A DNA stretch of 64,000 nt from an uncultured Gemmatimonadota bacterium. Lineage in GTDB: Bacteria; JAAXHH01. Both the position numbers and the translations under genes were made by a program. How positions within the stretch are numbered: position 1 is the stretch's first letter; each line of letters starts with the position of its first letter. The notes under the pieces are model-generated. The model worked only from the letters and a program-made list of their open reading frames with translations. It ran no database searches and had not been told where the DNA came from. The stretch is from contig OX638340.1 in NCBI GenBank assembly GCA_951812955.1, forward strand, positions 992,001-1,056,000. Reading direction: 5' to 3'. Positions 6,749 through 63,050 of this stretch are shown piece by piece.

Positions 6749-8470
6749 CTATATTCCGGACGCCCGGTCCGACAGGCCGTCCGCTTCACCGGAACCATTT
6801 TCCAGTTCGGCCCCGGTTCCGTCCGGGCTGTCCGGGCTGTCCGCTTCACCGGAACCATTTTCCATTTCGGCCCCGGTTCCGCCCGGGCTGTCCGGGCCGT
6901 CCAGGCCGCCGGGATCGCCGTCGAACGATTCCTTGCGCATATGGGGAAAGAGCAGGACGTCCTTGATGTTCGCGGAGTCCGTAATAAGCATGGCCAACCG
7001 GTCTATTCCGATTCCGCATCCCCCGGTGGGCGGCATGCCGTACTCCATTGCCCGGAGGAAGTCCTCGTCCATGGCGTGGGCTTCCCCATCGCCCTTGCGT
7101 TGCATTTCAACCTGCTCCTCGAACCGCCGGCGCTGGTCCATCGGGTCGTTCAACTCGGAGAATGCGTTGGCGAACTCACTCCCGCAGATAAACAGTTCGA
7201 ATCGCTCGGTGAGTTCCGGATTGTCCGGATGCCGTTTGGCCAGGGGGGAAATCTCCACGGGATAATCCGTAATGAAGGTCGGATTCAGCAAACGGTCCTG
7301 CACGAAGTATTCGAAGAGTCCGTCAATCATCTTACCTCTGCCCAGTTCGGGGTCCACATCGAGGCCCCGTTCACCGCAAACCGCCGCGAGCTCTGCGGTC
7401 GGCATCCTGGTGACGTCGACATCGCCATACTCGCGAATGGCGTCGAGCATGGAGATCCGAGGCCAGGGGGGGGTCATGTCGATGGACCGGCCCTGGTACG
7501 TGTGGTTCAGCGTTCCGTTAACATCCTGGAAGACACTTGTGAAGAGGCGCTCCACAAGATCCATGATGAACCGGTAATCGACATAGGCGATATAGAACTC
7601 CAGCATGGTGAACTCGGGATTGTGCGTGCGGTCGATCCCTTCATTGCGGAAATCATGCCCGATTTCGTACACGCGCTCCATGCCGCCGACGATCAACCGC
7701 TTCAGGTAAAGCTCGTCGGCAATGCGCATGAACAGCGGCATGTCGAGGGCCTGGTGGTGGGTCTTGAAGGGCCTTGCCAACGCGCCTCCGTACAGGGGCT
7801 GGAGTATCGGTGTTTCGACTTCGACGAAACCTTCTCCGTCCATGAACCGCTGAACGGACCGAATGAGCCGCGAGCGCTTGAGAAAGACCTCCTTGACGTC
7901 CGGATTGATGACCAGATCGACATAGCGTTGCCGGTACCTGGTTTCGATATCCCGCAGGCCGTGCCACTTTTCAGGCAGGGCGCGCAGGGACTTGGACAGC
8001 AGTTCCATCTCGTCCACCATGACGGTGGTCTCACCGGTTCGTGTGGTGAAGACTGCGCCTTTTACACCCAGATAGTCCCCTACCTCGATCAACTCGTCGA
8101 AGATCTCGTATACATCTGATCCGATGCGGTCGAGGCGGACGTAGATCTGGATCCGGCCGGTGCGGTCGAGCAGGTGGGCGAATCCGGATTTGCCATGACC
8201 CCGCTTGGACGTGATACGGCCCGCAACGGAGACGCGCTCGGCGGATTCGACCAGGTCTTCCGCCTGATCAAGAATGGACTGGGCTGGATGGGATACGTCG
8301 TAGCGGACGGGGTACGGATCGATGCCGCGAGCGCGGATCTCTTCGAGCTTGCTGTACCTTTGCCGGTTGAATTCGATCGGGCTGTTCACCCGTTTGCTCC
8401 GAAGGACTTTAAGATGGGTGGTAATTCCCTGAATGGGCGGTGAGCGGTCAGATCGAAGCGCCGTCGGCAT
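6749..8470 (-). CDS. lysS: Lysyl-tRNA synthetase (class II). It has an unusual ~60-aa acidic Gly/Ser-rich C-terminal tail containing a 20-aa tandem duplication.
   Basis: 573 aa. An OB-fold anticodon-binding N-terminal region is followed by class II motifs (FRNEG...). It sits immediately downstream of prfB, the classical prfB-lysS arrangement. The C-terminus reads ...DSPGGTGAEMENGSGEADSPDSPDGTGAELENGSGEADGLSDRASGI. Confidence 0.85.
   Translation of the reverse strand: MPTALRSDRSPPIQGITTHLKVLRSKRVNSPIEFNRQRYSKLEEIRARGIDPYPVRYDVSHPAQSILDQAEDLVESAERVSVAGRITSKRGHGKSGFAHLLDRTGRIQIYVRLDRIGSDVYEIFDELIEVGDYLGVKGAVFTTRTGETTVMVDEMELLSKSLRALPEKWHGLRDIETRYRQRYVDLVINPDVKEVFLKRSRLIRSVQRFMDGEGFVEVETPILQPLYGGALARPFKTHHQALDMPLFMRIADELYLKRLIVGGMERVYEIGHDFRNEGIDRTHNPEFTMLEFYIAYVDYRFIMDLVERLFTSVFQDVNGTLNHTYQGRSIDMTPPWPRISMLDAIREYGDVDVTRMPTAELAAVCGERGLDVDPELGRGKMIDGLFEYFVQDRLLNPTFITDYPVEISPLAKRHPDNPELTERFELFICGSEFANAFSELNDPMDQRRRFEEQVEMQRKGDGEAHAMDEDFLRAMEYGMPPTGGCGIGIDRLAMLITDSANIKDVLLFPHMRKESFDGDPGGLDGPDSPGGTGAEMENGSGEADSPDSPDGTGAELENGSGEADGLSDRASGI
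6779..6898. repeat. Two tandem copies of a 60-bp unit (~95% identical) inside the 3' end of lysS. They encode the duplicated C-terminal peptide DSP(G/D)GTGAE(M/L)ENGSGEA.
   Basis: Direct inspection: gtccgcttcaccggaaccattttccagttcggccccggttccgtccgggctgtccgggct is followed by gtccgcttcaccggaaccattttccatttcggccccggttccgcccgggctgtccgggcc. Confidence 0.8.
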
Positions 8471-8570: not shown

Positions 8571-9684
8571 TTACGTGCTTTTCACGGGATCTCCATGACG
8601 CAGGTAAGCCTCGATGAACGTATCGATGCCGCCATTCATCACGGACTGGATGTTTCCGATTTCAGTACCGGTTCGATGATCTTTCACCATGGTATAAGGG
8701 TGGAACACGTAGGAACGAATCTGGCTGCCCCACGCGATCTCCTTCTTGTCGCCTTCGAGGCGCTCCCTTTTTTCCCGGATCGCCTCCTGCCGCTGCTGGT
8801 ACAGGCGGGACATCAGCACCTTCATGGCGCTTTCCCGGTTGCGGTGCTGGGATCGCTCCGACTGGCATTGAACGACAATGCCTGACGGCCTGTGCGTAAC
8901 GCGTACGGCCGAGGAAGTCTTGTTCACGTGCTGGCCCCCGGCGCCGCTTGCCCGGTAGACGTCGATCTCCAGGTCCGCCTCGTTGAGATCGATATCGCCC
9001 GGATCGTCGATTTCCGGCAAAACGGAAACCGAGGCGAAGGAGGTATGCCGCCTGTGGTTCGAGTCGAAGGGGGAGATGCGCACGAGGCGGTGGACCCCGG
9101 CTTCCGCCTTGAGGTACCCGTAGGCGTATTCTCCCGAGACTTCGATGGAAACGCTCTTTATGCCTGCTTCCTCCCCCGGTTGCAGGTCCAGTGTATCAAA
9201 GGAATAATCCCGGGATTCCATCCAGCGGAGGTACATTCGCATGAGCATCTCGGCCCAGTCCTGGGACTCCGTTCCCCCCGCCCCGGGGTGTATGGAAACG
9301 ATGGCGTTCTTCGTATCGTCCGGGGCCGACAGCATACTTTGCAGCATCGCCGTTTCCAGGAGTCGCCGCAGCGACCGGACCCCGTCTTCGATCTCGTCGA
9401 AAGCGTCCCGGTCGTCTTCCTCGGCGGCCATTTCGAACAGGGTTTCCAGGTCTTCGGCCTGGCTGTCCATTTCGGTCCACCCATCGACGATCTTCTTGTG
9501 GTCGCTGATCTGCCTGCTGATCGTCTGGGCCCTGGCCTGGTTGTTCCAGAAGTCCGGCTCGCCCGTGACGCCTTCGAGCCTGGCCGTCTCCGCCTGTCGA
9601 TTTTCTATGTCAAAGGCCCCTCCAGAGATAGGCCAGTTGATTTCGGCATGCTTCCAGTTCGTTCTTTATTTCGGAAGGTTCCAT
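8571..9684 (-). CDS. prfB: Peptide chain release factor 2. A programmed +1 ribosomal frameshift is required: ORF1 runs from the ATG at 9684 to the in-frame UGA at the CUU UGA C site. The +1 frame continues into the 299-aa ORF given in the track.
   Basis: The track ORF (8571..9470) contains the RF2 GGQ motif (SGAGGQHVNKT) and the SPF tripeptide (ISPFDSNHRRHTSFASV). I translated the upstream minus strand. It gives MEPSEIKNELEACRNQLAYLWRGL followed by a stop within ...TAT CTC TGG AGG GGC CTT TGA C... The +1 frame then reads DIENRQAETARLEGVTGEPDFWNNQARAQTISRQISDHKKIVDGWTEMDSQAEDL..., continuous with the downstream ORF. Confidence 0.85.
9609..9623 (-). other. RF2 autoregulatory +1 frameshift cassette: internal Shine-Dalgarno-like GGAGGGG, 3-nt spacer, then CUU UGA C shift site.
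   Basis: On the minus strand the sequence is CTCTGGAGGGGCCTTTGAC. It matches the canonical prfB recoding signal: SD-like element, CUU, UGA, C. Confidence 0.8.
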
Positions 9685-9774
9685 CATCTGCGAATGTACT
9701 CCTTGTTTTTTCTCCGGTTTTTCATGTACCGGGGACCGCGGCTCCTAAATCAGGTATCGCGCACGGCCGGTCCG

Positions 9775-9912
9775 GGCCTCCGCTTCGGTCGTCCGCGCCG
9801 GGCACCGCGGCAAAGTCGGACCGAGCCTCCGCGCCGGGCACCGCGGCAAAGTCGGACCGAGCCTCCGCGCCGGGCACCGCGGCAAAGTCGGTCCGGGCCT
9901 CCGCTCCGGGCG
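9775..9912. repeat. Intergenic GC-rich tandem repeat (minisatellite). Three near-perfect copies of a 36-bp unit (CCGCGCCGGGCACCGCGGCAAAGTCGGACCGAGCCT) are flanked by degenerate copies. It lies between the stop of the upstream oxidoreductase gene and the prfB start.
   Basis: Exact 36-bp periodicity: CCGCGCCG starts at 9793, 9829 and 9865. The array is flanked by the same GTCCGGGCCTCCGC at both ends. There are no unique spacers, so it is not CRISPR-like. Confidence 0.75.
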
Positions 9913-9968
9913 ATCCCCGAGAACTTCCGGTATCCCCGAAATGCGACGGGACCAACGCCGGAATGCGC

Positions 9969-11012
9969 TTAGAACCTTCTGAAAGCTTCTTCCAGCAGTT
10001 CCTGGTCGCGGATCGAATCCGCTCCGGAGGAACGGACCGGAGCACCGGACCGTATACACGACACAAAGTGGGCGTTTGCCCTTCGAAACGCCCAGTCCCG
10101 CGGCGCTTGCGGCTGGGCATGCTGCTGAATGTCGCCCGCCCTGTAGACAGAGACCCGGGCCGGCACGTTCTTGAGCAGCGGGGGCGGCGTGCTGATCTCC
10201 ACCCACCCGTCCTCGAAATACACCTTGACGCTCTCGTCCCAGAAATTCGCCGACAACCGTCCAAGTTCCAACACCGCGTCAAATCCATCCATGGCGAAAA
10301 CCATCAGTTTCGTCGGACCGTCTAGCGTCGCGAATCTCAGTTCCCGGACCTCGCCCAGCAGGAAGCGCATCAGGTTGATGTTGTGGCAATACAGGTTGTT
10401 TGTGCTGTAGATATCCCCGATTCGTTCCTGTTCCAGCCACTCCGGTGGCCGGGATTCGATTTCAGGATAGGTCTCGTCCGTTGTTATCGCCGTCCCGGCG
10501 TTGCAGACCCAGTCACCCGCAAAGCAATGGCCCCTCGCATGGGTAATCGCCCCAAGTTCTCCGGTTGAACGCAGCTCGTCGATGATCGAACGGGCCATCT
10601 CCACGCCGGTATCGAAGCGTTTCATGTACCCGATCTGCAATTGCCGGCCGTTGCGTTCGGCGGCCTCGACCATGCGGCGCGCATCGGACAGGTTGGTCGC
10701 CATGGGTTTCTCGACGTAAACGTGCTTGCCCGCGTTCAATGCGTCGATGGAAACGGGTGCGTGGGCATCGTCCGATGTGATCTGAACTACGGCGTCGATC
10801 GTAGGATCGGCGCAGATCTCCTCGTGGGACACGCAGGTCGTCGGAATGCCGAAACGGTCTGCCACCCGCCGCGCCAGCCCGGACCTCCGGTCGGCCAGGG
10901 CGACGACCTCGCAACCGGCCATTTCCGTGAAGTTGGGCAGGTGGACCAACTGTCCCATGAATCCCGCGCCGACGAAGCCTATCCTGATGCTTTCTTTTCT
11001 AGCAGATTCCAC
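9969..11012 (-). CDS. Gfo/Idh/MocA family NAD(P)-dependent oxidoreductase
   Basis: The N-terminal Rossmann signature IRIGFVGAGFMGQLVHLPNF is present, and the overall layout is typical of Gfo/Idh/MocA dehydrogenases. Confidence 0.7.
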   Translation of the reverse strand: MESARKESIRIGFVGAGFMGQLVHLPNFTEMAGCEVVALADRRSGLARRVADRFGIPTTCVSHEEICADPTIDAVVQITSDDAHAPVSIDALNAGKHVYVEKPMATNLSDARRMVEAAERNGRQLQIGYMKRFDTGVEMARSIIDELRSTGELGAITHARGHCFAGDWVCNAGTAITTDETYPEIESRPPEWLEQERIGDIYSTNNLYCHNINLMRFLLGEVRELRFATLDGPTKLMVFAMDGFDAVLELGRLSANFWDESVKVYFEDGWVEISTPPPLLKNVPARVSVYRAGDIQQHAQPQAPRDWAFRRANAHFVSCIRSGAPVRSSGADSIRDQELLEEAFRRF

Positions 11013-11125
11013 GGTCTACTCCACTTGCCGCCGCTCCGCTGTTCCACCGTTATTGAACCCTGCAGCGCGCACATACTGCTCGTAGCGACGCGTTGCCGGC
11101 CCGATGCTGTCCCGCCCTTCCGCCG

Positions 11126-19077: not shown

Positions 19078-20337
19078 ATGAAGATCACGCACGCCGAACG
19101 AACCGCACTCAACGTGCCCTTTTACGCGCCACACGTCGATCACGCCATGGCCCGGGCCAACACCCATAACGAGCGCGTGTGGGTATACCGGCTGGAGACC
19201 GACAACGGCCTGGTCAGCATCACCGACGGGCACGGCGCTTCGGATACCGCCGGACTGATCGGCAAGGATCCGTGGACCATCATGTGGGACGACGATATCG
19301 GGTTCGGACCGCAGATCGCCGCCTTCGACCTGTGCGGAAAAGACGCGGGCGTCCCCGTTCACGCCCTGCTGGGCAACAAGCTGAGGGACCGCTGTCCCCT
19401 TTCGTGGTGGGACATCGACATGGCGCCCGAAGACTGGGTCAAGGAGGCGGAAGAGTCCCTCAGACGCGGCTACACATCCTTCAAGATGAAGGCCCGGCCC
19501 TGGCGCGACATCATCGCCCAGATCGACGCGGTGAGCAAGGTCGTCCCAGCCGATTACCGGTTCGACGTGGATTTCAACGGGTTTCTCCTCACCCAGGCGA
19601 AAGCGGAACAGATCCTGTCGCAACTCGACCAGCGAGTCAACGTGGGGATGTACGAAAGCCCCTTCTACCTGAGGAAAGATCTCAAGGGTGCGCAGATGCT
19701 CCGCGAACGAATCCAGAAGCCCATCGTCGAACACTTCGGCGACGACGTGTGGCAGGCGGAGGTCAGCGACGGATTCGTGATCGGCGGCGGCGCCTCGGGG
19801 ACCATACGGCAGGGGACCATGGCGGCCGCGTTGAACAAGCCCTTCTGGCTTCAGATGGTAGGCGCCGGGATGACCACGACTTTTGCCGCCCATATCGGAT
19901 CGGTGCTGTCGCACGCCCAACTGCCCTACATCACCTGCAATGAACTATGGAAAACCGACCTGTTGACCGAACGGATCGAGGTGGTGGACGGGTACATGGC
20001 GGTACCCGACAAGCCCGGCCTGGGGGTGGAGGTCGACGAGAAGGCCATCGAGACCTACGCCGTCGATGACGACGAGCCCACGGCGGTCCAGCTGTACCGG
20101 AGCAGGAAGCGCATCCTCCGCGTGGTCTGGCCCGGCTTGGCCGGAAAACAGCGTGTCTGGGAGTTTACCGACGAGAGCATCTACCAGCCGGAATTCTACA
20201 AAGGGAACCTGCCGGGATTTGAATCGGGGGTGCATCTCGAGGTGATCGAAGACGACCAAAGCGCCGCCTTCGAGAAGAGACATTCGGAACTGGCCAGGCG
20301 GGAGGCCTCGGTAGCGCGGGCGCCCAAGGGAATCTAG
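19078..20337 (+). CDS. Enolase-superfamily enzyme, mandelate racemase/muconate lactonizing enzyme (MR/MLE) family. It is probably an acid-sugar dehydratase or cycloisomerase.
   Basis: 419 aa. An N-terminal capping domain is followed by a TIM barrel with the expected metal-ligand spacing. GGAGG lies 6 nt upstream of the ATG. Confidence 0.65.
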   Translation: MKITHAERTALNVPFYAPHVDHAMARANTHNERVWVYRLETDNGLVSITDGHGASDTAGLIGKDPWTIMWDDDIGFGPQIAAFDLCGKDAGVPVHALLGNKLRDRCPLSWWDIDMAPEDWVKEAEESLRRGYTSFKMKARPWRDIIAQIDAVSKVVPADYRFDVDFNGFLLTQAKAEQILSQLDQRVNVGMYESPFYLRKDLKGAQMLRERIQKPIVEHFGDDVWQAEVSDGFVIGGGASGTIRQGTMAAALNKPFWLQMVGAGMTTTFAAHIGSVLSHAQLPYITCNELWKTDLLTERIEVVDGYMAVPDKPGLGVEVDEKAIETYAVDDDEPTAVQLYRSRKRILRVVWPGLAGKQRVWEFTDESIYQPEFYKGNLPGFESGVHLEVIEDDQSAAFEKRHSELARREASVARAPKGI

Positions 20338-20349
20338 GTGCTATCTGCT

Positions 20350-20505
20350 ACCGGGAAGTGCGGGAACTCAACCGGCGGCCGCGGCTCGACCGGGAGATGC
20401 GGGATACCGGACGGCCGCGGCGTTTCCGGGAAGCGCGGGGTTCCGGCCGGCCGCGGCGTATCCGGGGGTTAGCGCGGGATACCGGACGGTTGCGGCGTAT
20501 CCGTT
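20350..20505. repeat. Degenerate tandem array of four to five ~36-39-bp GC-rich units (consensus roughly CCGGGARRTGCGGGAWMCCGGMCGGCCGCGGCGTWT). It lies in the convergent intergenic region between the MR/MLE gene and the ceramidase-like gene.
   Basis: Successive units begin with CCGGGA at 20351, 20390, 20426 and 20462. They carry internal CCGCGG and CCGGCCGG palindromes. Confidence 0.65.
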
Positions 20506-20512
20506 CCCGGAT

Positions 20513-21790
20513 TCACCTGGACCGGGGCCGTCTGAAGGTTTCGGGGATAACCCGCTGCACCCCCTCGATCACTTGCTCTTCCACTTCATCCGTGAAGCGG
20601 TTGGGCAATCCGAAGTATACCGTGGCGTCACCGCCTTCGTACCCACCCTCCTTCCATATCCTTCGGGACGGTATGTAGCCGGGGAAGTCATTCGCGTAAG
20701 CGCCGATCCAGATCTTCGCCGGATTGTACATACGTCGCAGCCTGGCGGCATAGTCCGCGACCACCTCCCCGGCCAGGAAGACGATGGAGAGTTCATCACC
20801 GAATGACCAGCCCTGGACCGGGTAACTGAGTGCCGCGGGGACTTCCACGCCTCGGTCCATCCGCGCGATCCACTGCCGGGCATGATAGCCCGCCGCACCC
20901 TCTTCCTCCGCCGTGGCCAGCCAGTCCTCGCGTGAAGGCAAGGAGTCATATGGCAGCGAGGCGTGGACCAGGCGGCATCTGATCCCGTCGGGAAGGGGCC
21001 GGGCGGGTATCCCCAGCAGCCGATCCACTTCTAACGCGATATCCTCTCCGTGACGGCGGGAATGTGATAAGCCCGTGCGCGGAAAGGGATTCGCATTACC
21101 GGCGCACCCGATGGTGACCAGGGCGACGGCGCCCGGGTGCCTTCGACTGATACGCTCAGCCGCGAATCCCGCCCAGTCGCCGCACATGAAGTTGTCCGCG
21201 GGACCGAATGTCGTACAGTGACAGGCATAGCTGACCCAGACCGCGCGCAGGCCGCCGTCCGGATCATCGACCCGTAACATGGGCATCACGTGATCCACGG
21301 GTCCAATCTGCGCGCGTCGATTCACCGCGAACCCGACGTGTCCCTCGCCGTAGGTCAACCTGGCCGGCCTACGTTCCGACAACGCACGCAGCCCGGCTTC
21401 CACCAGGCGTTCCTTCACATCAGCTGTATAGCGGTCGATTTGCCGCTGGTGCTCGGCCGGGATATCCGTACCGAACAGCATGGGGGCAGCGCCGGACAGC
21501 ATGGGTGCGTTGTGGGTGTGTGTGTAGCACAGAACGATGCGTTCCCGGTCAACCCCCGCCTGCCTGCCCAGTTCCCTCGCGACGGACTCCGTCATGGATT
21601 CGGTCACGCCGCAATTCTCCAGGACCAGCAGCAGAACCGGCCGCTCCGCGCCGATGGCCAGTGCACGGGCATACAGCGTCGACTTGATCTTCGCCGTTTC
21701 ATTCCGCCGCGCGCCGTAACCGCTCAACCGCACCGGGTAATCAGGGGTTACATCGACTTCAGATACGCCGGCTGAAACCAACTCGCTCAT
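20513..21790 (-). CDS. Neutral/alkaline ceramidase-like hydrolase. It matches the N-terminal catalytic domain only (425 aa); the C-terminal domain found in full-length ceramidases is missing.
   Basis: VDVTPDYPVRLSGYGAR matches the ceramidase D(I/V)TP-x-GY(A/G) motif. LCYTHTHNAPML matches the Zn-ligand THTHSGP motif. Both are recalled family signatures, not database hits. Confidence 0.45.
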   Translation of the reverse strand: MSELVSAGVSEVDVTPDYPVRLSGYGARRNETAKIKSTLYARALAIGAERPVLLLVLENCGVTESMTESVARELGRQAGVDRERIVLCYTHTHNAPMLSGAAPMLFGTDIPAEHQRQIDRYTADVKERLVEAGLRALSERRPARLTYGEGHVGFAVNRRAQIGPVDHVMPMLRVDDPDGGLRAVWVSYACHCTTFGPADNFMCGDWAGFAAERISRRHPGAVALVTIGCAGNANPFPRTGLSHSRRHGEDIALEVDRLLGIPARPLPDGIRCRLVHASLPYDSLPSREDWLATAEEEGAAGYHARQWIARMDRGVEVPAALSYPVQGWSFGDELSIVFLAGEVVADYAARLRRMYNPAKIWIGAYANDFPGYIPSRRIWKEGGYEGGDATVYFGLPNRFTDEVEEQVIEGVQRVIPETFRRPRSR

Positions 21791-25310: not shown

Positions 25311-26465
25311 CTAAGGATCTGCGAACCATCGCTTCAATACCCGTTCCGCTTCCTTGTTCTGGGGGCTGAATTCTATCCTGTCCGAGGTAATCCGGCTCGC
25401 ATTGGGGTACCATTTCCAAATGAACAGCCCACGGAACCAGGGCAACCGCCCGACGGACCTGAACAGGGCCTCGTATGCGTTGACCTGTTCGTCCGGGTCA
25501 ACGCGGTGGGTTTCCGGTTGCTGATCGCCGCTCCGGCGACGCCTCGGCGGCCATTCCCAGGGCCGAATGGTGGACCCGGGTGCATTCTTGTAGCCTACTT
25601 CGGTGAATAGAACCGGTTTGCCGTGCTCTTCGGACAGTCGGCCGATGCTTTCTATGTGGGGCTTCCATCCCGAGATGATTTCGGTGACGCTCGGTCCATT
25701 GCTGTCGGTCAGGGGGAAATAGGCGTTGACCCCGATGTAATCGAGGTGGGGCCACAACTCGATCACCTCGTAATCCCGGTACCAGTTCGCCGCGTAGGTG
25801 AGTCTCCCGGTGTAGACCGCCCTGATGTCCCGGATCAGCGATTTCCAGAACTGTGGACGGGACCGCACCGGATTGGACAGTTCGGTGGCGATGCACAGGA
25901 TTGCCACGTCTTCCTCCTGTGCCAGTTCGGCATAGTGCAGGATGAAAGTCCGGTAATCCGCTTCCCACTGCCGCCATTCCGCCTCCGTATCGAAGTCGAT
26001 CGTCCCTATCCAGCCGTCATCCACGGGCCTGGTCAGCCAGAGGTGGGGCTTGAGCATCAATCGGAATCCCAGTTCCCGGGCCTTCCTGGCCGTAGCCCGA
26101 AGCCCCTGGTCGGTCTCACCCCAGAACCGTCCGCGCCGGTTCATCCGAACGGACGGCGTGGTGTGGTTCTCCATCCATCCGAAAGGCGTAAGCGACAGCC
26201 ATTCGATGCCCATTTCGCGCGCCCCGGGCAGGGCGTGTTCCGGCATCTCCCAGCGCCCGCCCACCCAGGACACACCCTTGTAGAAGTTCTCCAGCGCAAA
26301 GGGTTGTTCCTGTGCCGCAGGACGGTCTGAGGCCTGTTCTCCTGTGCGATATGCGGCCTGTTCCCCAGAACGATTCGCGGACGTCGCGTCGCTCCAGAAG
26401 GCCGGTTCGCACCACAGGAGGGCACAAACGATCAGCCCTGATTTCAGGTAGCGAATGGATATCAT
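25311..26465 (-). CDS. Secreted TIM-barrel glycoside hydrolase (clan GH-A-like). I use the internal ATG at 26465, just before the signal peptide. The longer ORF start would overlap pyrH.
   Basis: Signal peptide MISIRYLKSGLIVCALLWCEPAFW. Candidate acid/base and nucleophile regions are IATELSNP and VLFTEVGY. I cannot assign the family firmly. Confidence 0.4.
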   Translation of the reverse strand: MISIRYLKSGLIVCALLWCEPAFWSDATSANRSGEQAAYRTGEQASDRPAAQEQPFALENFYKGVSWVGGRWEMPEHALPGAREMGIEWLSLTPFGWMENHTTPSVRMNRRGRFWGETDQGLRATARKARELGFRLMLKPHLWLTRPVDDGWIGTIDFDTEAEWRQWEADYRTFILHYAELAQEEDVAILCIATELSNPVRSRPQFWKSLIRDIRAVYTGRLTYAANWYRDYEVIELWPHLDYIGVNAYFPLTDSNGPSVTEIISGWKPHIESIGRLSEEHGKPVLFTEVGYKNAPGSTIRPWEWPPRRRRSGDQQPETHRVDPDEQVNAYEALFRSVGRLPWFRGLFIWKWYPNASRITSDRIEFSPQNKEAERVLKRWFADP

Positions 26466-26484
26466 GGTGAAGGCATGGTTGAGG

Positions 26485-27216
26485 TCAGGCGAACTGGTCA
26501 GCCCCCCTTGTGATGAGGGTGCCGAGGTCTTCTCCCCGGCATATCCGTTCCATTGCGCCAGGAGAATTGAAATCAAAGACGTGAATCGGCAGTTTGTTGT
26601 CCCGGGCCAGCAGCACGGCCGTCTGATCCATCACCCTGAGATCATGCTGTATGACCGAATCGTAGCTGATGACCTGGAATCTTCGGGCGTCCGCGTTTTC
26701 TTTGGGATCGCTCGTGTAGATCCCGTCGGTGCCGTTTTTGGCCGAAAGCAGCACTTCCGCCCTGAGCTCCAGGGCGCGCAGCACAGACGGATAGTCCGTG
26801 GTCACGTATGGATTCCCGGTGCCTGCGGCGAGGAGGACGATACGGCCATGCTCCAGGTGACGGACGGCCCGGAGCCGGATGTAGGGTTCGGCCACTGTAT
26901 TGATCGGAATGGCCGTCATGACCCGGACGTCGCCCGCCCCCCGGGAGGTCAGCGCGCCGCGCAGCATCATGCTGTTGATCACGGTTGCGATCATACCGAT
27001 ATTGTCTGCTTCCGCGCGTTCGATACCCCAGTCCTGGCCAAGTTCGCCCTTGAAGATGTTGCCTCCTCCGGCCACGATCCCTACTTCGACCCCCGCGGCG
27101 TGCAGCTTCATGACCTCGCTGGCGATGTTCTCGATGGCTGAAGGATCGAATCCCCATGGACTTTCCCCCGAAAGCGCGCCTCCACTGAGTTTGACCAATA
27201 CTCGCTTGTAACGCAC
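26485..27216 (-). CDS. pyrH: UMP kinase. The start is a GTG at 27216, immediately preceded by GGAGGATCC. The longer ORF start would overlap pncB.
   Basis: YKRVLVKLSGGALSGE..., GIVAGGGNIFKG and the rest of the protein show the classic amino-acid-kinase fold motifs of PyrH. Confidence 0.75.
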   Translation of the reverse strand: MRYKRVLVKLSGGALSGESPWGFDPSAIENIASEVMKLHAAGVEVGIVAGGGNIFKGELGQDWGIERAEADNIGMIATVINSMMLRGALTSRGAGDVRVMTAIPINTVAEPYIRLRAVRHLEHGRIVLLAAGTGNPYVTTDYPSVLRALELRAEVLLSAKNGTDGIYTSDPKENADARRFQVISYDSVIQHDLRVMDQTAVLLARDNKLPIHVFDFNSPGAMERICRGEDLGTLITRGADQFA

Positions 27217-45786: not shown

Positions 45787-45816
45787 AATTGAACCTGCCG
45801 TCGGACCGGGCAGTTT

Positions 45817-45865
45817 ACCTGAAGTCTTTCGATCCTGGCAGATAACCTGAAGTCTTTCGATCCTG
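45817..45865. repeat. Two perfect copies of a 21-bp direct repeat ACCTGAAGTCTTTCGATCCTG separated by 7 nt (28-bp period). They lie in the 5' leader between the promoter and the LarA-like start, and form a candidate operator.
   Basis: Exact copies at 45817-45837 and 45845-45865. Confidence 0.7.
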
Positions 45866-45906: not shown

Positions 45907-47463
45907 ATGAAATACCTGACCTATTCCGGTAACAACATCATCCACGCGGAACTGCCCGAAGAAGCGTCGGTCTTCTTCCCTCCGCCACCGCTCCCTGGAA
46001 TACCGAACAAGGATATACCGAACCGGGTCAGGGCGGCCTTCGAATCTCCCCTGGACATGCCGCCCCTGGAGGAACTGGTCGACGAGAAGAGCAGGATCCT
46101 CATCGCTTTCGACGACAATTGCCAGCCCTTTCCAGCTACCGCGCCGCCCGATATCCGCCAGCTCGCCATCGAGGCTCTGCTGGATATGCTCGACAGCTAC
46201 GGGGTGAAGCTGGAAAACATCGAGCTTATGTGTGCGGTCGCGCTGCATCGCAAGATGAAGGACTACGAATTGGCCGCCATGCTAGGCAAGCGCATCATGA
46301 AAACCTTCCACCCCCATCAACTGGTCAATTTCGACGCCGAGGACCCCGACGACATCGTCGTGCTGGGTACGACCGAAGAGGGAGAACCGGTGGAGACCAG
46401 CCGCAAGGTCATCGAAAGCGACCTGGTGATCTACGTGGACTCCATTCAGATTCCCCTGAACGGGGGACACAAATCCGTGGCCGTGGGTCTGGGAACGTAC
46501 AACAGCATCGCGCCGCACCACGCGCCCCAGATGACCTCTGAGAAGCCCCACGTCATGCAGCCCGAAGGTTCCGAAATGCACGGTTCAATCGAGCGCATTA
46601 GCCGCGTCATACTGAAACACACCCGCGTCATGGTCCTCGAGGCCGCCATGAACAACGCGTCCTATCCCCCGCTGATGCGCTATCTCAGCAAACCGGCGGA
46701 GCGTTGCAACCTGTTCGAGCGCGTGCTGAAGGCCACGACGCCGGCGTCCATGAAACTGTTGCCCGAATCGGTGCGATTCCAGGTATTCAAGGGCATTCAG
46801 AGCGCCTATCTTCCCGTCGAGATCAATGCCGGCTCAATCGACGCCGTCCACGAACCGACGCTGCAGACGCTGAAGGACCAGTTGCTGGTGACGACCGACC
46901 ACCAGCACGACACACTCGTATTCGGCCTGCCCGACCTCAGTCCCTACTCGGTCGGTGCGCGGATCAACCCGGTCCTGGTCCTGAGCGACGTCCTCGGATA
47001 CGTATTCAACTGGTTCTACAACAAGCCCTTCGTGAAGCCGGGAGGCGTGGTTATCATCATGAACCCGGTCTTCGAGTACTTCCATCCCGAGTACCACGTC
47101 GCCTACGAGAAGTTCTGGAACGAGGTGCTGCCCGAGACCCAGGATCCCTTCGAGATGCAATCGGCTTTCCAGGAGAAGTTCGCCCGGGATCCCCACATGA
47201 TCGACTGTTACCGGCACCGCTTCGCCCACCACGGCTTCCATCCCTTCACCGTGTGGTACTGGGCGACTTACCCGCTTAAATACCTGTCCAGGGTGATCCT
47301 GGCCGGCCCGAAAACAGACTTCGCCGCCAAGAGGCTGGGCGTTTCCTGGGCGCCGGACCTGGAGCACGCACTGGGTCAGGCCCGCGAAGTTACCGGCGGC
47401 GACGACGTGGTGGCCCTGACCATCCCGCCCTTCATGTACATGCAGGTGAATGACAAGGGTTAA
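45907..47463 (+). CDS. LarA-like protein (lactate-racemase N-terminal domain / DUF2088 family; nickel-pincer-cofactor-dependent racemase/epimerase superfamily). I prefer the ATG start at 45907.
   Basis: ~518 aa. Its overall organisation and conserved His/Lys-rich blocks (...LNGGHKSVAVGLGTYNSIAPHHAP...) are reminiscent of LarA homologues. This is recalled family resemblance, not a search. Confidence 0.4.
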   Translation: MKYLTYSGNNIIHAELPEEASVFFPPPPLPGIPNKDIPNRVRAAFESPLDMPPLEELVDEKSRILIAFDDNCQPFPATAPPDIRQLAIEALLDMLDSYGVKLENIELMCAVALHRKMKDYELAAMLGKRIMKTFHPHQLVNFDAEDPDDIVVLGTTEEGEPVETSRKVIESDLVIYVDSIQIPLNGGHKSVAVGLGTYNSIAPHHAPQMTSEKPHVMQPEGSEMHGSIERISRVILKHTRVMVLEAAMNNASYPPLMRYLSKPAERCNLFERVLKATTPASMKLLPESVRFQVFKGIQSAYLPVEINAGSIDAVHEPTLQTLKDQLLVTTDHQHDTLVFGLPDLSPYSVGARINPVLVLSDVLGYVFNWFYNKPFVKPGGVVIIMNPVFEYFHPEYHVAYEKFWNEVLPETQDPFEMQSAFQEKFARDPHMIDCYRHRFAHHGFHPFTVWYWATYPLKYLSRVILAGPKTDFAAKRLGVSWAPDLEHALGQAREVTGGDDVVALTIPPFMYMQVNDKG

Positions 47464-47485
47464 TTAAGCGCGCTAATGACAAGGA

Positions 47486-48511
47486 TTAAGAGAGCGCGCC
47501 ACGGAGTTTCCCCACCAGGTCACGGGCCGGCGCAAAGGGCAGCGTAACGACCGCCCGGCGCAACGCGCTTTCGTAAATCCCCAGGATCACGCTGAAGTCG
47601 GACAGCGCCGAATCGATGTTCAACGGGTGGACGGCCGAGTCGTCTTCGATCCAGTCGATCATGGCTTCGGTCATCGCCGCCTGGCCGCGGATGTCTTCCT
47701 CGGCGTAGACATGTTCCCCGCTTTCGTATTTGTTGTCTATCCTGGATTCCCAACCGTGCATGGTCCAATGCACGTACCCCTTGTCCCCGTACACCGCAAT
47801 ACGCTTGTGGACGTTTACCGCTCCGGCGGCGATAACGCGAGGCGCGACGGCGCCGCAGCGCAGCAGGGCGCTCACGCCGTTGTCGTAGTTGATGACTCCG
47901 GTGCAATGGTCCGGCGCGTAGTGGTGCCTGGAGGTTTCGGCCAGTCCTTCCGGGCCCGATACCTGTCCGAAGACATCGACCGGCGTCGCGCCGGTGTTGA
48001 AAGCACCTACGGCCTGCAGCGCGTGCGTCCCCTGGTAGGCCAGGTTCATCCCCGCACTGGCCTCAATGAAGCGTAGATTCCCGATTGCGCCTTCCCGCAC
48101 CTTCCGCTGAAACAGGCTCCGTCGAGGGTGAAAGTGCAACTGGTGATTGACGGCTATTTTGACCCTGGCAGACCGCGCGAAGGCCTGCATCGCCAGGAAA
48201 TCCTCTCCCTGGATGGCAACGGGTTTCTCGACCAGCACGGCCGGTATCCCCGCCGACTCCGCCGCTTCGAAGATCTCCATGCGTACCGAGGGCGGCGTGT
48301 TAACATGGACCAGGTCCGGTTTCTCCCGCTCGAACATCTCGCGGTAGTCTGTGTACCTCGCGGACACATCGAACGCCGATCCGAAGGCATCGAGCTTATC
48401 CCGCTGACGGCTCGACACGGCGGCCAGGCTTCCGCGGCTTACGTGCCGGTAGGCCTCGGCCAGTCCACGAGCCCTCCCGCCGCTGACCCCGATGATTGCG
48501 CTTTTCATCAT
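47486..48511 (-). CDS. Gfo/Idh/MocA family oxidoreductase. I use the internal ATG at 48511.
   Basis: MMKSAIIGVSGGRARGLAEAYRHV... is the Rossmann N-terminus. The rest is a Gfo/Idh/MocA C-terminal domain. Confidence 0.65.
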   Translation of the reverse strand: MMKSAIIGVSGGRARGLAEAYRHVSRGSLAAVSSRQRDKLDAFGSAFDVSARYTDYREMFEREKPDLVHVNTPPSVRMEIFEAAESAGIPAVLVEKPVAIQGEDFLAMQAFARSARVKIAVNHQLHFHPRRSLFQRKVREGAIGNLRFIEASAGMNLAYQGTHALQAVGAFNTGATPVDVFGQVSGPEGLAETSRHHYAPDHCTGVINYDNGVSALLRCGAVAPRVIAAGAVNVHKRIAVYGDKGYVHWTMHGWESRIDNKYESGEHVYAEEDIRGQAAMTEAMIDWIEDDSAVHPLNIDSALSDFSVILGIYESALRRAVVTLPFAPARDLVGKLRGALS

Positions 48512-48542: not shown

Positions 48543-48617
48543 AGGCAATGCGAGACCGGTCCAGGTAATGCGGGACCCTTCCAGGTAATGCGAGACCTAC
48601 CTCGGTAATGCGGGACC
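48543..48617. promoter_or_regulatory. Four direct repeats of GGYAATGCGRGACC at an exact 20-bp period, immediately upstream of the Gfo/Idh/MocA gene start. They form a candidate transcription-factor binding array.
   Basis: AGGCAATGCGAGACC at 48543, AGGTAATGCGGGACC at 48563, AGGTAATGCGAGACC at 48583 and CGGTAATGCGGGACC at 48603. Confidence 0.6.
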
Positions 48618-48638
48618 CGTACCGTACCCGGCCGGCCG

Positions 48639-52048: not shown

Positions 52049-52184
52049 GCGTGAGTGCCGTTTAACCAGGGAAGCGAATATGGGATCCGATTCCCCATAC
52101 CATATGGATACTCGGCCGCGGACGCCTGGCCGCGGATGCTCGGCCGCGGGATGAATTGAAAACGTACGTTTCCGGAGATTACTC

Positions 52185-53246: not shown

Positions 53247-53308
53247 ATGCACAGTAGAAAACCTCATCCGCATGACGGATGCTTGAACCGCCGGAAACGG
53301 AGCAGAAC

Positions 53309-54427
53309 ATGAAGATAACCCGCATTGAAACCATTCCTGTCGAAGTGCCACTCAAGCAGGGCATGACCACGAAAACCGCTCACGGCGAACATATCGTCTC
53401 CCCTTACGTCATACTCAGGGTGCATACGGACGAGGGGCTGACCGGGTTGGGCGAAGCCACGGTCGCGCCGCGCTGGAGCGGAGAAACGTCCGCGTCCTGT
53501 ACAGCTGCGATCCGGGATCTGGTGGATCCCGCGCTGAAGGGGGAGGATCCGGCTGACGTGAACCGGCTTTGCGGAGTCATGGACGAGGTCGTCAAGCTGA
53601 ACCCCTTCACCAAGGCGGGCGTGGAGATGGCCCTTTGGGACCTGGCGGGCAAGCATGCGGGGAAGCCTCTCTATCAATTGCTGGGCGGAAAGGTCCGGCA
53701 AGAGATTCCAATGAAGATGGTGGTCGGCGCCTTTGACGTGCCGACTTCGGTTGCCCTGGCGGAGAAATTCCTGCAGTGGGGTGTGCAGTGTCTCAAGGTC
53801 AAAGTCGGGCTGGATCCCGGGGAGGATCTCGAACGCGTCCGCGCGGTCCGCGCGCTGGCCGGCCCCGACATCCGTATGAGCATCGACGCGAATTGCGGGT
53901 GGCCGCCGGCCGTTGCGCGACGCATGTTGCATCTCCTCGAGCCATTGGACATCCTGTTCGCAGAGCAGCCCATGGCACCGCAGTTCGACGATGAAGCGGC
54001 CCTGATCAGAACGGGCACGACCATCCCCATCATGGCCGACGAGAGCGTCTTCACCCCGCACGACGCCATGCAGACCGCACTGCGCCGATCGGCGGACATC
54101 ATCAGCGTATATCCGGGCAAGAACGGAGGGATCGGACAGACGCTGGGCATCTCGCACGTGGCCAGCGCGGCGGGACTGCGCTGTCACATGGGCAGCAATC
54201 TCGAGTTGGGGATCGCCACGGCGGCCATGCTCCACGTGGCGGCCAGCGTGGAACCCATCGACAGTGAGACCTATCCCGGCGACCTGCTCGGTCCGCTGTA
54301 CCACGAAGGCGATATGATCGAGACGCCGCTGGAACTCGGCCCCGTCCATGCGAGCGTACCCGAAGGACCCGGTCTCGGAGTCACCCTGGATGAAGCACAG
54401 ATCGAACGCTGGAAAGACGCGTCATGA
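53309..54427 (+). CDS. Enolase-superfamily MR/MLE enzyme (muconate cycloisomerase / dipeptide epimerase / sugar-acid dehydratase-like)
   Basis: MKITRIETIPVEVPLKQGMTTKTAHGEH... is the capping domain. Barrel metal ligands are spaced as in MR/MLE enzymes (...SIDANCGW...ILFAEQP...IMADES...). Confidence 0.7.
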   Translation: MKITRIETIPVEVPLKQGMTTKTAHGEHIVSPYVILRVHTDEGLTGLGEATVAPRWSGETSASCTAAIRDLVDPALKGEDPADVNRLCGVMDEVVKLNPFTKAGVEMALWDLAGKHAGKPLYQLLGGKVRQEIPMKMVVGAFDVPTSVALAEKFLQWGVQCLKVKVGLDPGEDLERVRAVRALAGPDIRMSIDANCGWPPAVARRMLHLLEPLDILFAEQPMAPQFDDEAALIRTGTTIPIMADESVFTPHDAMQTALRRSADIISVYPGKNGGIGQTLGISHVASAAGLRCHMGSNLELGIATAAMLHVAASVEPIDSETYPGDLLGPLYHEGDMIETPLELGPVHASVPEGPGLGVTLDEAQIERWKDAS

Positions 54428-54520
54428 CCGGCTGTTCGAACGGAATCCCACCCATGACCGGATCCGCATGCATGACCGGAATCCCACCTATGACCGGATC
54501 CACACGCATGACCGTTACGC
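54424..54520. repeat. Intergenic tandem repeat. Two ~36-bp units (GGAATCCCACCYATGACCGGATCCRCAYGCATGACC) are present. Embedded in them, ATGACCG(G) recurs five times at 30, 18, 18 and 17-bp spacing. The array lies directly upstream of a Gfo/Idh/MocA gene.
   Basis: ATGACCG at 54424, 54454, 54472, 54490 and 54507. Confidence 0.6.
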
Positions 54521-54589: not shown

Positions 54590-55648
54590 ATGGCTGACGA
54601 ACGGACCTACAAGGCTTGCGTGGTGGGCCTGAGCGGCATCGGGGCGGGGCAGCCCCCGGTCGACGGCGACCACGGAATGGGCCAAGAAATGCCTAACCGG
54701 CACGTACCGGCCTATGCCCTCCTGCCGTTTACGGAGGTGGTCGGTGTATGTGACCTGAAAGAAGACCTCCTGCAGGAAACCATGGATGATTGGTCGGGTA
54801 CCTTCCCGGGATTGCGGGGATTCGCGGACTACAGGGAGATGCTTGAAGCCTGCAAACCGGATATACTGAGCGTAGTAACATCGGACCACCGCCACGCGGA
54901 CATCGTCGTGGACGGAGTCGCGGCGGGCGTTCGGGGCATCTATTGCGAGAAACCGATTGCGACCTCACTTGCGGATGCCGACCGCATGATCGCCGCGGTG
55001 GAAAGCCGGAACGTGCCCATGAACATCAACCACACCCGCCGCTGGGGAGCGGTATACCGGGAAGTCAGGAAGCTGCTCGACGAAGGCGCGATCGGCGAGC
55101 TGAAACGCATCACGCTGAATTTCGGCGGCCCCCGGGCCATTCTTTTCCGCAACGGCACCCACATGATCGACATGGCCTGCTACCTCGCGGGATCGGAACC
55201 CGCGTGGGTTTTCGCCGAACTCGACGAAGGCTACGAGGACTACTGGCCCTACCAGGGCGATGGCGGAAGGAACGCGGACCTGGAGCCGGGCTGCTCCGGT
55301 TTCATCCATTTCAAGAACGGCGTGCGTGCATTTTACAACGGTTCCAAGGGAATGGAATGCCGTGGAGGTTACCAGCTGGACGGTACCGACGGATGGATGT
55401 TCGTTCACGAGGACTATTACGAGCTCGACACGGGTAAAGGTATCCAGACTGTCGCTCCCAAGGGTCCGACCCATTACTACTCCGTCGCGGCTATCCGGGA
55501 CCTCGTCCACGTCATGGAACACGGAGGTGAGACCATTTCACCTCCCCGCGCCGCCCGGAATACCCTGGAGATCATCCTGGGGTTTCTCGCATCACAGAAG
55601 CACGGCAACGTACGCATAGATTTCCCGCTGGACGAGAACACCGTATAG
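54590..55648 (+). CDS. Gfo/Idh/MocA family oxidoreductase
   Basis: ACVVGLSGIGAG... is the Rossmann N-terminus. ...CEKPIATSLADADRMIAAVE... is the consensus EKP motif of this family. Confidence 0.7.
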   Translation: MADERTYKACVVGLSGIGAGQPPVDGDHGMGQEMPNRHVPAYALLPFTEVVGVCDLKEDLLQETMDDWSGTFPGLRGFADYREMLEACKPDILSVVTSDHRHADIVVDGVAAGVRGIYCEKPIATSLADADRMIAAVESRNVPMNINHTRRWGAVYREVRKLLDEGAIGELKRITLNFGGPRAILFRNGTHMIDMACYLAGSEPAWVFAELDEGYEDYWPYQGDGGRNADLEPGCSGFIHFKNGVRAFYNGSKGMECRGGYQLDGTDGWMFVHEDYYELDTGKGIQTVAPKGPTHYYSVAAIRDLVHVMEHGGETISPPRAARNTLEIILGFLASQKHGNVRIDFPLDENTV

Positions 55649-62255: not shown

Positions 62256-63050
62256 CTATCCGCCGTCCTCCAGCTCAGCCAGAGTCTCCAGCACCCCCTG
62301 CTGGATGAACTCCTCGTAGGCGTCCCGTGTCGGTAGTTCGGCCGCCTTCGACAGCATTTTCGTGGCCCGCGCCCGGCCGTCCTCGCGATCAAGATATGGA
62401 AGCCTGAGCGCATATTCAAACAGCACGACCTTCGAGTCCGGAGCTAGCTCCAGAGCCCGCTCGTAATGGATGACGGCGTTTTTCCGATTCCCCTTGTACA
62501 AGAACCGTGCAACGCGCCCGGCACGTGCGATGTCGGCGTGCCAGCCCCCTAAGGCCATATGCGCCTCTGCGAAGTCGGGGGAGATGGTGAGCGCGGTCTC
62601 GAGCAAATCGCGTGCCCTGCCCGCCAGACCTCGGCGAAATGCAGTTAGTTTACCGATACTCTGTGCATATCGGCCAACAGCGTGCGCGGATTGGAAATAT
62701 GCTTCGGAATTGGTCGAATCGATGCGCACTGCTTCTTCCCCGTACTCTATCGCGCGTTCCAAAATACCGTTCCGGTCCTCCTCAGTCGCCACATGGTGGC
62801 CGTACACCGCGAGCGATTGCGCCGCAAGGGCGTAGCCTTCGGATGTACCGACGGCTGACGCGAGATCCGCCGCCTCGAGAAAACGGCCTTCCTCGAAATC
62901 GGTCCTTGCTTCATCGATCGACTGCGCGTTCGCGCCAGCCGGGTCGGCCAGGCTGGCCGCAATAATCACGAATCCCGCAACTGCCACGAAACGGACAACT
63001 GCCGCGAATCCCGCAACGACTGCGAAACGGTAAAACTGGGTAAGGGTCAT
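62256..63050 (-). CDS. TPR-like repeat protein with an N-terminal hydrophobic anchor or signal
   Basis: 264 aa. Hydrophobic N-terminus (FAVVAGFAAVVRFVAVAGFVIIAASLA) followed by Ala/Glu/Tyr-rich helical repeats consistent with TPR or Sel1-like repeats. Confidence 0.45.
   Translation of the reverse strand: MTLTQFYRFAVVAGFAAVVRFVAVAGFVIIAASLADPAGANAQSIDEARTDFEEGRFLEAADLASAVGTSEGYALAAQSLAVYGHHVATEEDRNGILERAIEYGEEAVRIDSTNSEAYFQSAHAVGRYAQSIGKLTAFRRGLAGRARDLLETALTISPDFAEAHMALGGWHADIARAGRVARFLYKGNRKNAVIHYERALELAPDSKVVLFEYALRLPYLDREDGRARATKMLSKAAELPTRDAYEEFIQQGVLETLAELEDGG

Follow-up and report, generated by a model that had tools for sequence, protein, structure and literature searches.

MLVA typing of bacteria such as Mycobacterium, Xanthomonas and Yersinia makes use of VNTR (minisatellite) loci. 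REP elements, which are imperfect palindromes, occur dispersed in tens to hundreds of copies per genome, often in alternating orientation, while a length of ~36 bp is typical of CRISPR repeats. MIRUs, which are tandem direct repeats that lack obvious palindromes, mostly lie in intergenic regions, often between co-directional genes, and are polymorphic in copy number; they constitute one related family with 40–100-bp units at 41 loci, containing small ORFs and keeping a fixed orientation (PMC5056196). According to the textbook model of tandem repeats, whole units are gained and lost via strand slippage or unequal recombination (PMC3899988).

In this study, tandem arrays of ~36-bp units were analyzed at three spacers (loci 1–3) of a 64-kb window, i.e., the whole stretch of DNA under analysis. 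The arrays are very probably independent, locus-specific and neutral VNTR minisatellites of a sponge-associated Latescibacterota genome. Their likeness to described VNTRs consists in head-to-tail direct repeats of 10–100 bp in non-coding spacers at a level above chance, in whole-unit alleles between close strains, in a private unit at each locus derived from local sequence and, presumably, in generation via slippage or unequal recombination (PMC3899988). They differ from described VNTRs in their host, an uncultured sponge-symbiont Latescibacterota lineage, in their unusual density (10 arrays per 64 kb and, across the clade, ~32 per 100 kb when spacers and gene ends are counted) and in a recurrent 18/36-bp hierarchy. 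To our knowledge, VNTR loci have not been described before in this sponge-symbiont lineage.

Other described systems match less closely. The arrays share with MIRUs the intergenic location, the direct tandem arrangement and the polymorphic copy number; however, their units are 36 bp long and unrelated between loci, one locus lies between convergent genes, and no MIRU-type bridging ORF joins the upstream stop to the downstream start in the frames through the arrays. REP/BIME elements are likewise GC-rich and extragenic, have a comparable length (~35 bp) and may occur in clusters, whereas the copies here stand in tandem in the same orientation, loci 1 and 2 fold no more stably than shuffles, and no dispersed copies were found. 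In contrast to CRISPR arrays, successive copies directly adjoin one another head to tail, with a period equal to the unit length and no unique spacers between them; because of this absence of spacers, the judgement of the first-pass annotation that these are not CRISPR arrays holds.

Layout and gene context of the arrays

All three intergenic arrays of ~36 bp reported in the first-pass annotation were recovered by TRF, with scores of 219, 136 and 127 at loci 1, 2 and 3, respectively. As a chance control, TRF was run on each of 30 dinucleotide-preserving shuffles of the window; these contained 0–2 arrays apiece, with a top score of 68 (n = 30). The arrays at the three loci are 74–133 bp long. 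Register alignment revealed degenerate edges and identical internal copies within arrays.

The locus 1 array (9792–9911) has a period of 36, with 3.3 copies of the unit TCCGCGCCGGGCACCGCGGCAAAGTCGGACCGAGCC and 96% matches. Strictly perfect periodicity is confined to 9792–9891 (100 bp, 2.8 units), and the third copy diverges over its final 8 nt. The earlier description of three perfect copies with degenerate flanks was thus correct for the flanks but overstated the perfect stretch. Degenerate half-copies flank the core at 9761–9791 and 9900–9912. The former, GCCGGTCCGGGCCTCCGCTTCGG, recurs at 9882–9912 with 84% identity, and this half-copy motif of ~18 bp appears to be the older sequence from which the array grew.

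The array occupies a 281-bp spacer (9688–9968, minus strand) between the stop of a Gfo/Idh/MocA oxidoreductase gene (9969–11012, minus strand; PF01408, E = 2.7e-27; syntenic in related loci L001–L003) and the start, at 9687, of the release factor 2 gene prfB (8571–9687, minus strand; Pfam PCRF and RF-1), and is indeed upstream of prfB, as first annotated. The prfB gene consists of a 25-codon ORF1 (9610–9687), a programmed +1 frameshift site AGGGGCCTTTGAC following it (9600–9620, minus strand) and an ORF2 ending at 8571; the frameshift site is unchanged in all aligned relatives. A 477-aa ORF running through the array, a product of greedy ORF calling, was rejected as spurious, and the gene map was set by the called genes of relatives.

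At locus 2, the array (20350–20505) fills a 175-bp spacer (20338–20512) and comprises four degenerate units of 36–39 bp with a consensus of approximately ACCGGACGGCCGCGGCGTATCCGGGAGACGCGGGAT. TRF placed it at 20371–20503, with a period of 36–39, 2.8–3.6 copies, 76–80% matches and a score of 134–136. An MR_MLE gene of the enolase superfamily (19078–20337, plus strand; PF13378) ends 12 bp short of the array, and a ceramidase-like gene (20513–21790, minus strand; PF04734, E = 2.4e-11) converges on it from the other side.

The locus 3 array (54423–54516) is built from 18-bp units containing ATGACCGG and organized as 2 × 36 bp. For the interval 54441–54514, TRF gave both 36 × 2.1 (92% matches) and 18 × 3.9. 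The basic period is 18: every unit starts with ATGACCGG, which returns every 18 bp, and the autocorrelation was 0.59 at lag 18 and 0.74 at lag 36. The flanking genes share one strand, with an MR_MLE gene upstream (53279–54427, plus strand; Pfam MR_MLE_N and MR_MLE_C) and a Gfo/Idh/MocA gene downstream (54590–55648, plus strand; PF01408 and PF22725). The first ATGACCGG holds the TGA with which the upstream MR_MLE gene ends, and each of the later units puts a TGA in the frame of that gene. For both loci 2 and 3, Pfam assignments agreed with the gene neighborhood originally reported. Placement is tandem (3′–5′) at loci 1 and 3 and convergent (3′–3′) at locus 2.

In total, the window contains 10 arrays with a period of at least 10, seven of which score at least 90. 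The remaining arrays have periods of 14, 20/40, 24, 26, 28 and 60, together with a fourth 18/36-bp array (62967–63038, 2–2.8 copies) close to where a TPR-protein ORF begins. The initial account of three loci with a ~36-bp period was right about their presence but thus picked out part of a larger collection, and the basic period of locus 3 is half that length. An 18-bp sub-period was found in all four 36-bp arrays of the 64-kb window. Between divergent genes, a 28-bp unit is repeated twice (45809–45865); a 26 bp × 2 array (47449–47499) lies between convergent genes, and a 20/40 bp × 3.9 array (48543–48620) upstream of a Gfo/Idh/MocA gene. No mutual similarity was detected among these three arrays and the one at 62967–63038. 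The 14-bp unit CGGCCGCGGACGCC is present in 2.6 copies (TRF) at 52113–52149, within the spacer 52049–52184.

The 60-bp repeat (2.1 copies with 9-bp sub-repeats; 6775–6913) lies in the 3′ tail of a tRNA-synt_2 ORF (6749–8470, minus strand). The called length of this aminoacyl-tRNA synthetase is 573 aa in the window, 547 in L001, 514 in L002 and 541 in L003; since these lengths differ, the tail is a variable extension or effectively non-coding. The 24-bp repeat (26309–26380) is coding and specifies an 8-aa low-complexity linker (SGEQAAYR / TGEQASDR) just past the signal peptide of ORF 25311–26576 (minus strand), where many congeners have other periods. The repeat "hot spot" at ~26.3 kb was rejected as a spacer array, being this coding linker repeat. 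Rfam and tRNA scans of the whole window returned zero matches.

Copy-number variation among related genomes

Exact look-ups of the two proteins flanking locus 1 gave no match, and relatives were reached through homologue searches. The window falls within a tight clade of sponge-associated MAGs, as indicated by prfB homologues and by loci retrieved with the MR_MLE protein as query. The MAGs are labelled Latescibacterota, Gemmatimonadetes or just "bacterium", and many are complete chromosomes of ~3.7–3.97 Mb, for example those obtained in sponge genome projects. Gene order around loci 1–3 is conserved in relatives. Genomes with 96–97% nucleotide identity to the window were considered conspecific. 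The related loci L001 and L005 belong to APA_bin_41, L097 is MKWU01001295.1, and L022 is the sister genome OY762445.1.

The window and L001 share 97.2% identity over 19.7 kb, and of 14 proteins of L001, not one has an identical counterpart in the window. The sole indel longer than 7 bp between them measures exactly 72 bp, corresponding to two units of locus 1. The independent assemblies L001/L005 and L097 carry a one-unit allele at this locus, compared to three units in the window, although, as a counterpoint to the VNTR reading, the one-unit allele (L005, L097) comes from assemblies where tandem repeats may collapse. This allele (L005, L097) also differs from the window unit by substitutions. 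L022, a long-read complete chromosome with 99% amino-acid identity in prfB, has no locus 1 unit; its 158-bp spacer lacks the ACTTTGCCGCGGTGCCCGG half of the unit and retains only the ~18-bp motif CGGTCCGGGCGTCCGCTC in a single copy. The history of locus 1 is thus graded, from zero units in L022 through one in L005/L097 to three in the window. Across the clade, the gfo–prfB spacer is 281 bp long in the window and 202, 158, 137–149 or 17–30 bp in relatives. The 137–149-bp spacers of some congeners contain barely alignable sequence, and eight congeners have a spacer of 17–30 bp with the flanking genes intact.

Locus 2 is also graded, with a single unit in the 54-bp spacer of L022 and four units in both the window and L005. 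The arrays of the latter two are only ~81–84% identical, compared to 97% in their flanks. The spacer of other congeners is 0–123 bp long without the window array, or contains a different array. It is reduced to 0–3 bp in six congeners and to at most 7 bp in a seventh, with the flanking genes intact. At the locus 2 site of L009 (11261–11449), an unrelated 18-bp array, GGACCGGGCGGATCAGGC, was observed, and the last ~45 bp of the MR_MLE gene were duplicated together with downstream sequence, which shows independent duplication events in one spacer.

The alignment of the window with L085/L086 showed 96.0% identity over 10.7 kb and just two indels, of 35 bp and 72 bp. At locus 3, the window carries one extra 35/36-bp unit relative to ten conspecific contigs from other samples (L085–L094). 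At the 52.1-kb array of 14-bp units (CGGCCGCGGAYGCC; L085 3484–3595), L085/L086 are 72 bp longer than the window. A 13-bp repeat replaces the array at the locus 3 site of L095, an 84%-identical relative. L022 and L085 contain single-copy precursors of the arrays at the corresponding sites. In L087, a DDE-transposase (IS) gene lies downstream of the hydantoinase genes (10125–11069); none was called in L085/L086, whose loci end nearby.

At the level of aligned genomes, these comparisons demonstrate whole-unit differences between the window and its relatives and the dispensability of the array spacers in congeners. Between strains, array length differs by 72 bp at locus 1 and by 35/36 bp at locus 3. 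Since copy number varies among closely related genomes, the arrays could serve as the typing marker that the first-pass annotation had suggested.

Relationships among the arrays and alternative explanations

The arrays had initially been described as a family, with dispersed REP-like elements as one reading. A REP/BIME-, MITE- or MIRU-like interspersed family inserted at several spacers would account for GC-rich intergenic units with short palindromes (CCGCGG, CCGGCCGG), and 9-bp CCAGGCKGR arrays occur at two non-orthologous congener spacers beside similar gene ends. Such a family is nevertheless very unlikely. In local alignments of all nine window arrays on both strands, no score rose above those of dinucleotide shuffles (for example, 19 for locus 1 against locus 2, with a shuffle mean of 22). 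The locus 1 unit had 0 matches elsewhere in the 64-kb window with up to 3 mismatches, and an exact search with its 27-nt core gave 0 matches in 185,579 species genomes (genome_contigs) and 0 in the JGI metagenome collection (metagenome_contigs). Using blastn-short against 1.7 Mb (the window plus 97 related loci), matches of the three arrays were confined to their own or the orthologous locus. The palindrome CCGCGG, cited earlier as a common feature, is uninformative, with 55 occurrences in the window against 64 expected; CGGCCGCGG occurred 8 times against 4.1 expected, yet at only 5 independent sites, and its enrichment vanished when each array was counted once. Both CCGCGG and CCGG, the motifs common to the arrays, are at background frequency. 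Furthermore, relatives show stepwise growth in place, not insertion. By these comparisons, the three arrays are mutually unrelated and do not form one element family: they have neither sequence nor structure in common, and their position relative to genes is not consistent. The units were essentially unique to their sites and lacked conserved placement, contrary to the initial reading.

A cis-regulatory function, with the arrays acting as repeated iteron- or operator-like binding sites or as 5′-UTR attenuators that tune prfB and Gfo/Idh/MocA genes, copy number being the knob, is quite improbable. Loci 1 and 3 do lie directly upstream of genes, and folding of the locus 3 spacer is somewhat more stable than that of shuffles (z = −2.4, equalled by 1 of 200), which is a counterpoint to the VNTR reading. 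The decamer GGGATNCCGG was found 7 times against 2.05 expected, with four of the seven copies in or beside loci 1–3 (positions include 9927–9936, 20401–20410, 20476–20485 and 54476–54485), and the related CGGGGATACCGG is kept in the gfo–prfB spacers of several congeners, outside the array. CGGGATWCC was similarly found 7 times against 2.45 expected. However, both enrichments are post hoc and inflated by within-array copies, for which reason they were rejected as family evidence; that of GGGATNCCGG is at most a weak curiosity. Congeners with the same gene order lack the arrays, including the eight with a gfo–prfB spacer of 17–30 bp, and locus 2 is situated between two 3′ ends. No excess structure was found at locus 1 (z = +0.3 on the minus and +0.9 on the plus strand, relative to shuffles) or at locus 2 (+0.2 / −0.8). 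In the scan of locus 1 (9400–10200), the only locus covered, the spacer contained no sigma-70-like promoter and no terminator-like hairpin, the lone terminator-like site of the region being inside the gfo gene. The attenuating structures proposed at first are thus not supported, with no intrinsic terminator or attenuator in the locus 1 array and arrays absent in congeners. The proposal of conserved binding arrays fared no better, as sequence comparison revealed orthologous spacers without the units or with unrelated arrays between conserved flanking genes. Translation of the arrays, either as variable C-terminal tails of upstream genes or as small spacer-spanning ORFs, would explain periods (18 and 36) divisible by 3. 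It is in line with the locus 1 array being open in five of six frames and with the 24-bp linker repeat and the 60-bp tRNA-synthetase-tail repeat being truly coding or gene-terminal. We consider it highly improbable, however, as the upstream genes end before the arrays at conserved stop codons, the locus 3 units each carry an in-frame TGA, and the sequences are absent from congeners. At locus 2, moreover, units of 36, 37 and 39 bp combine 3-bp and non-3-bp offsets and have stops in most frames. That the copy numbers merely reflect mis-assembly, by expansion or collapse, has a negligible probability. Short-read de Bruijn assemblies (k141 contigs and MAG bins, e.g., L005 and L086–L090) can collapse tandem repeats; however, independent assemblies from different projects, complete chromosomes among them, have arrays or single-unit precursors at identical sites, the alleles differ by substitutions besides copy number, and the arrays themselves are short.

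Origin of the arrays and array density in the clade

Under the preferred interpretation of the arrays as independent VNTR minisatellites, each array would have arisen in place from local spacer or gene-end sequence in which short direct repeats (~18 bp, imperfect) were already present. Through slippage during replication, or through unequal recombination, these short repeats would have given rise to a duplicated 36-bp block consisting of two 18-bp sub-units, and later gains and losses of whole units may reflect the same process. The seed would have taken in the end of the upstream gene at locus 3 and in L009. The 18-bp sub-period fits a dimer duplication of an older 18-bp direct repeat, and the degenerate edges, together with the faster divergence of locus 2 than of its flanks, fit unconstrained sequence that is turning over. 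With no sequence constraint on the spacers, arrays could persist, drift, as at locus 2, or remain near-perfect if recent, as at locus 1. We infer both the slippage/recombination mechanism and selective neutrality, the latter because conservation is lacking.

Array density was compared between the close clade (L005–L025) and distant Latescibacterota and Poribacteria loci (L027–L084), counting TRF arrays with a period of at least 10 and a score of at least 50. The close clade had 15.8 arrays per 100 kb, compared to 3.4 in the distant loci (~4.7-fold), and 31.8 compared to 4.8 when only spacers and gene ends were considered (~6.6-fold); these counts are phylogenetically non-independent, and GC content also differs (61.6% vs. 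56.3%). A period of 18 or 36 was found in 11 of the 34 arrays outside aligned coding sequence and is over-represented in the close clade.

The CCAGGCKGR arrays of congeners (L018 1910–1949, L024 1830–1930, L021 2053–2085, L006 ~2090–2125; L010 19476–19522, L019 18829–18846) are the sole hint of unit sharing between loci. They occupy the RadC–gfo spacer and the equivalent of window ~28.6 kb, each abutting the gene end GGCCGCTATAT; no CCAGGCKGR array is present at either corresponding site of the window. A box, GCCGCTATAT, beside congener arrays had a promoter-like look and was rejected as such, since it represents the 3′ end, including the stop codon, of neighboring genes.

Generic slippage alone predicts neither the common 18/36 period of the four arrays nor the array excess of the clade. 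It is conceivable, though rather unlikely, that the arrays are symptoms of a lineage-specific mutational process in this sponge-symbiont genus with ~3.9-Mb genomes. In such a process, spacers and gene ends may repeatedly spawn hierarchical 18/36-bp, sometimes 9-bp-based, CCGG-rich arrays, often at or near stop codons. If true, this would indicate a replication or repair peculiarity, for example template switching of a preferred length or a missing repeat-stabilizing function, rather than generic slippage.

As VNTR minisatellites, the arrays themselves are ordinary: VNTRs in intergenic regions are well known, and the results give no sign of a novel element or mechanism. Short-read MAG assemblies may collapse or break at such arrays. 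Strains of this uncultured symbiont could be tracked in different sponge hosts and samples by PCR or sequencing reads, with loci 1 and 3 and the 52.1-kb array as markers, because these three are length-polymorphic between conspecific genomes at 96–97% identity. The excess of spacer arrays in the clade, if genome-wide, would be a modestly interesting mutational signature of the symbiont lineage.
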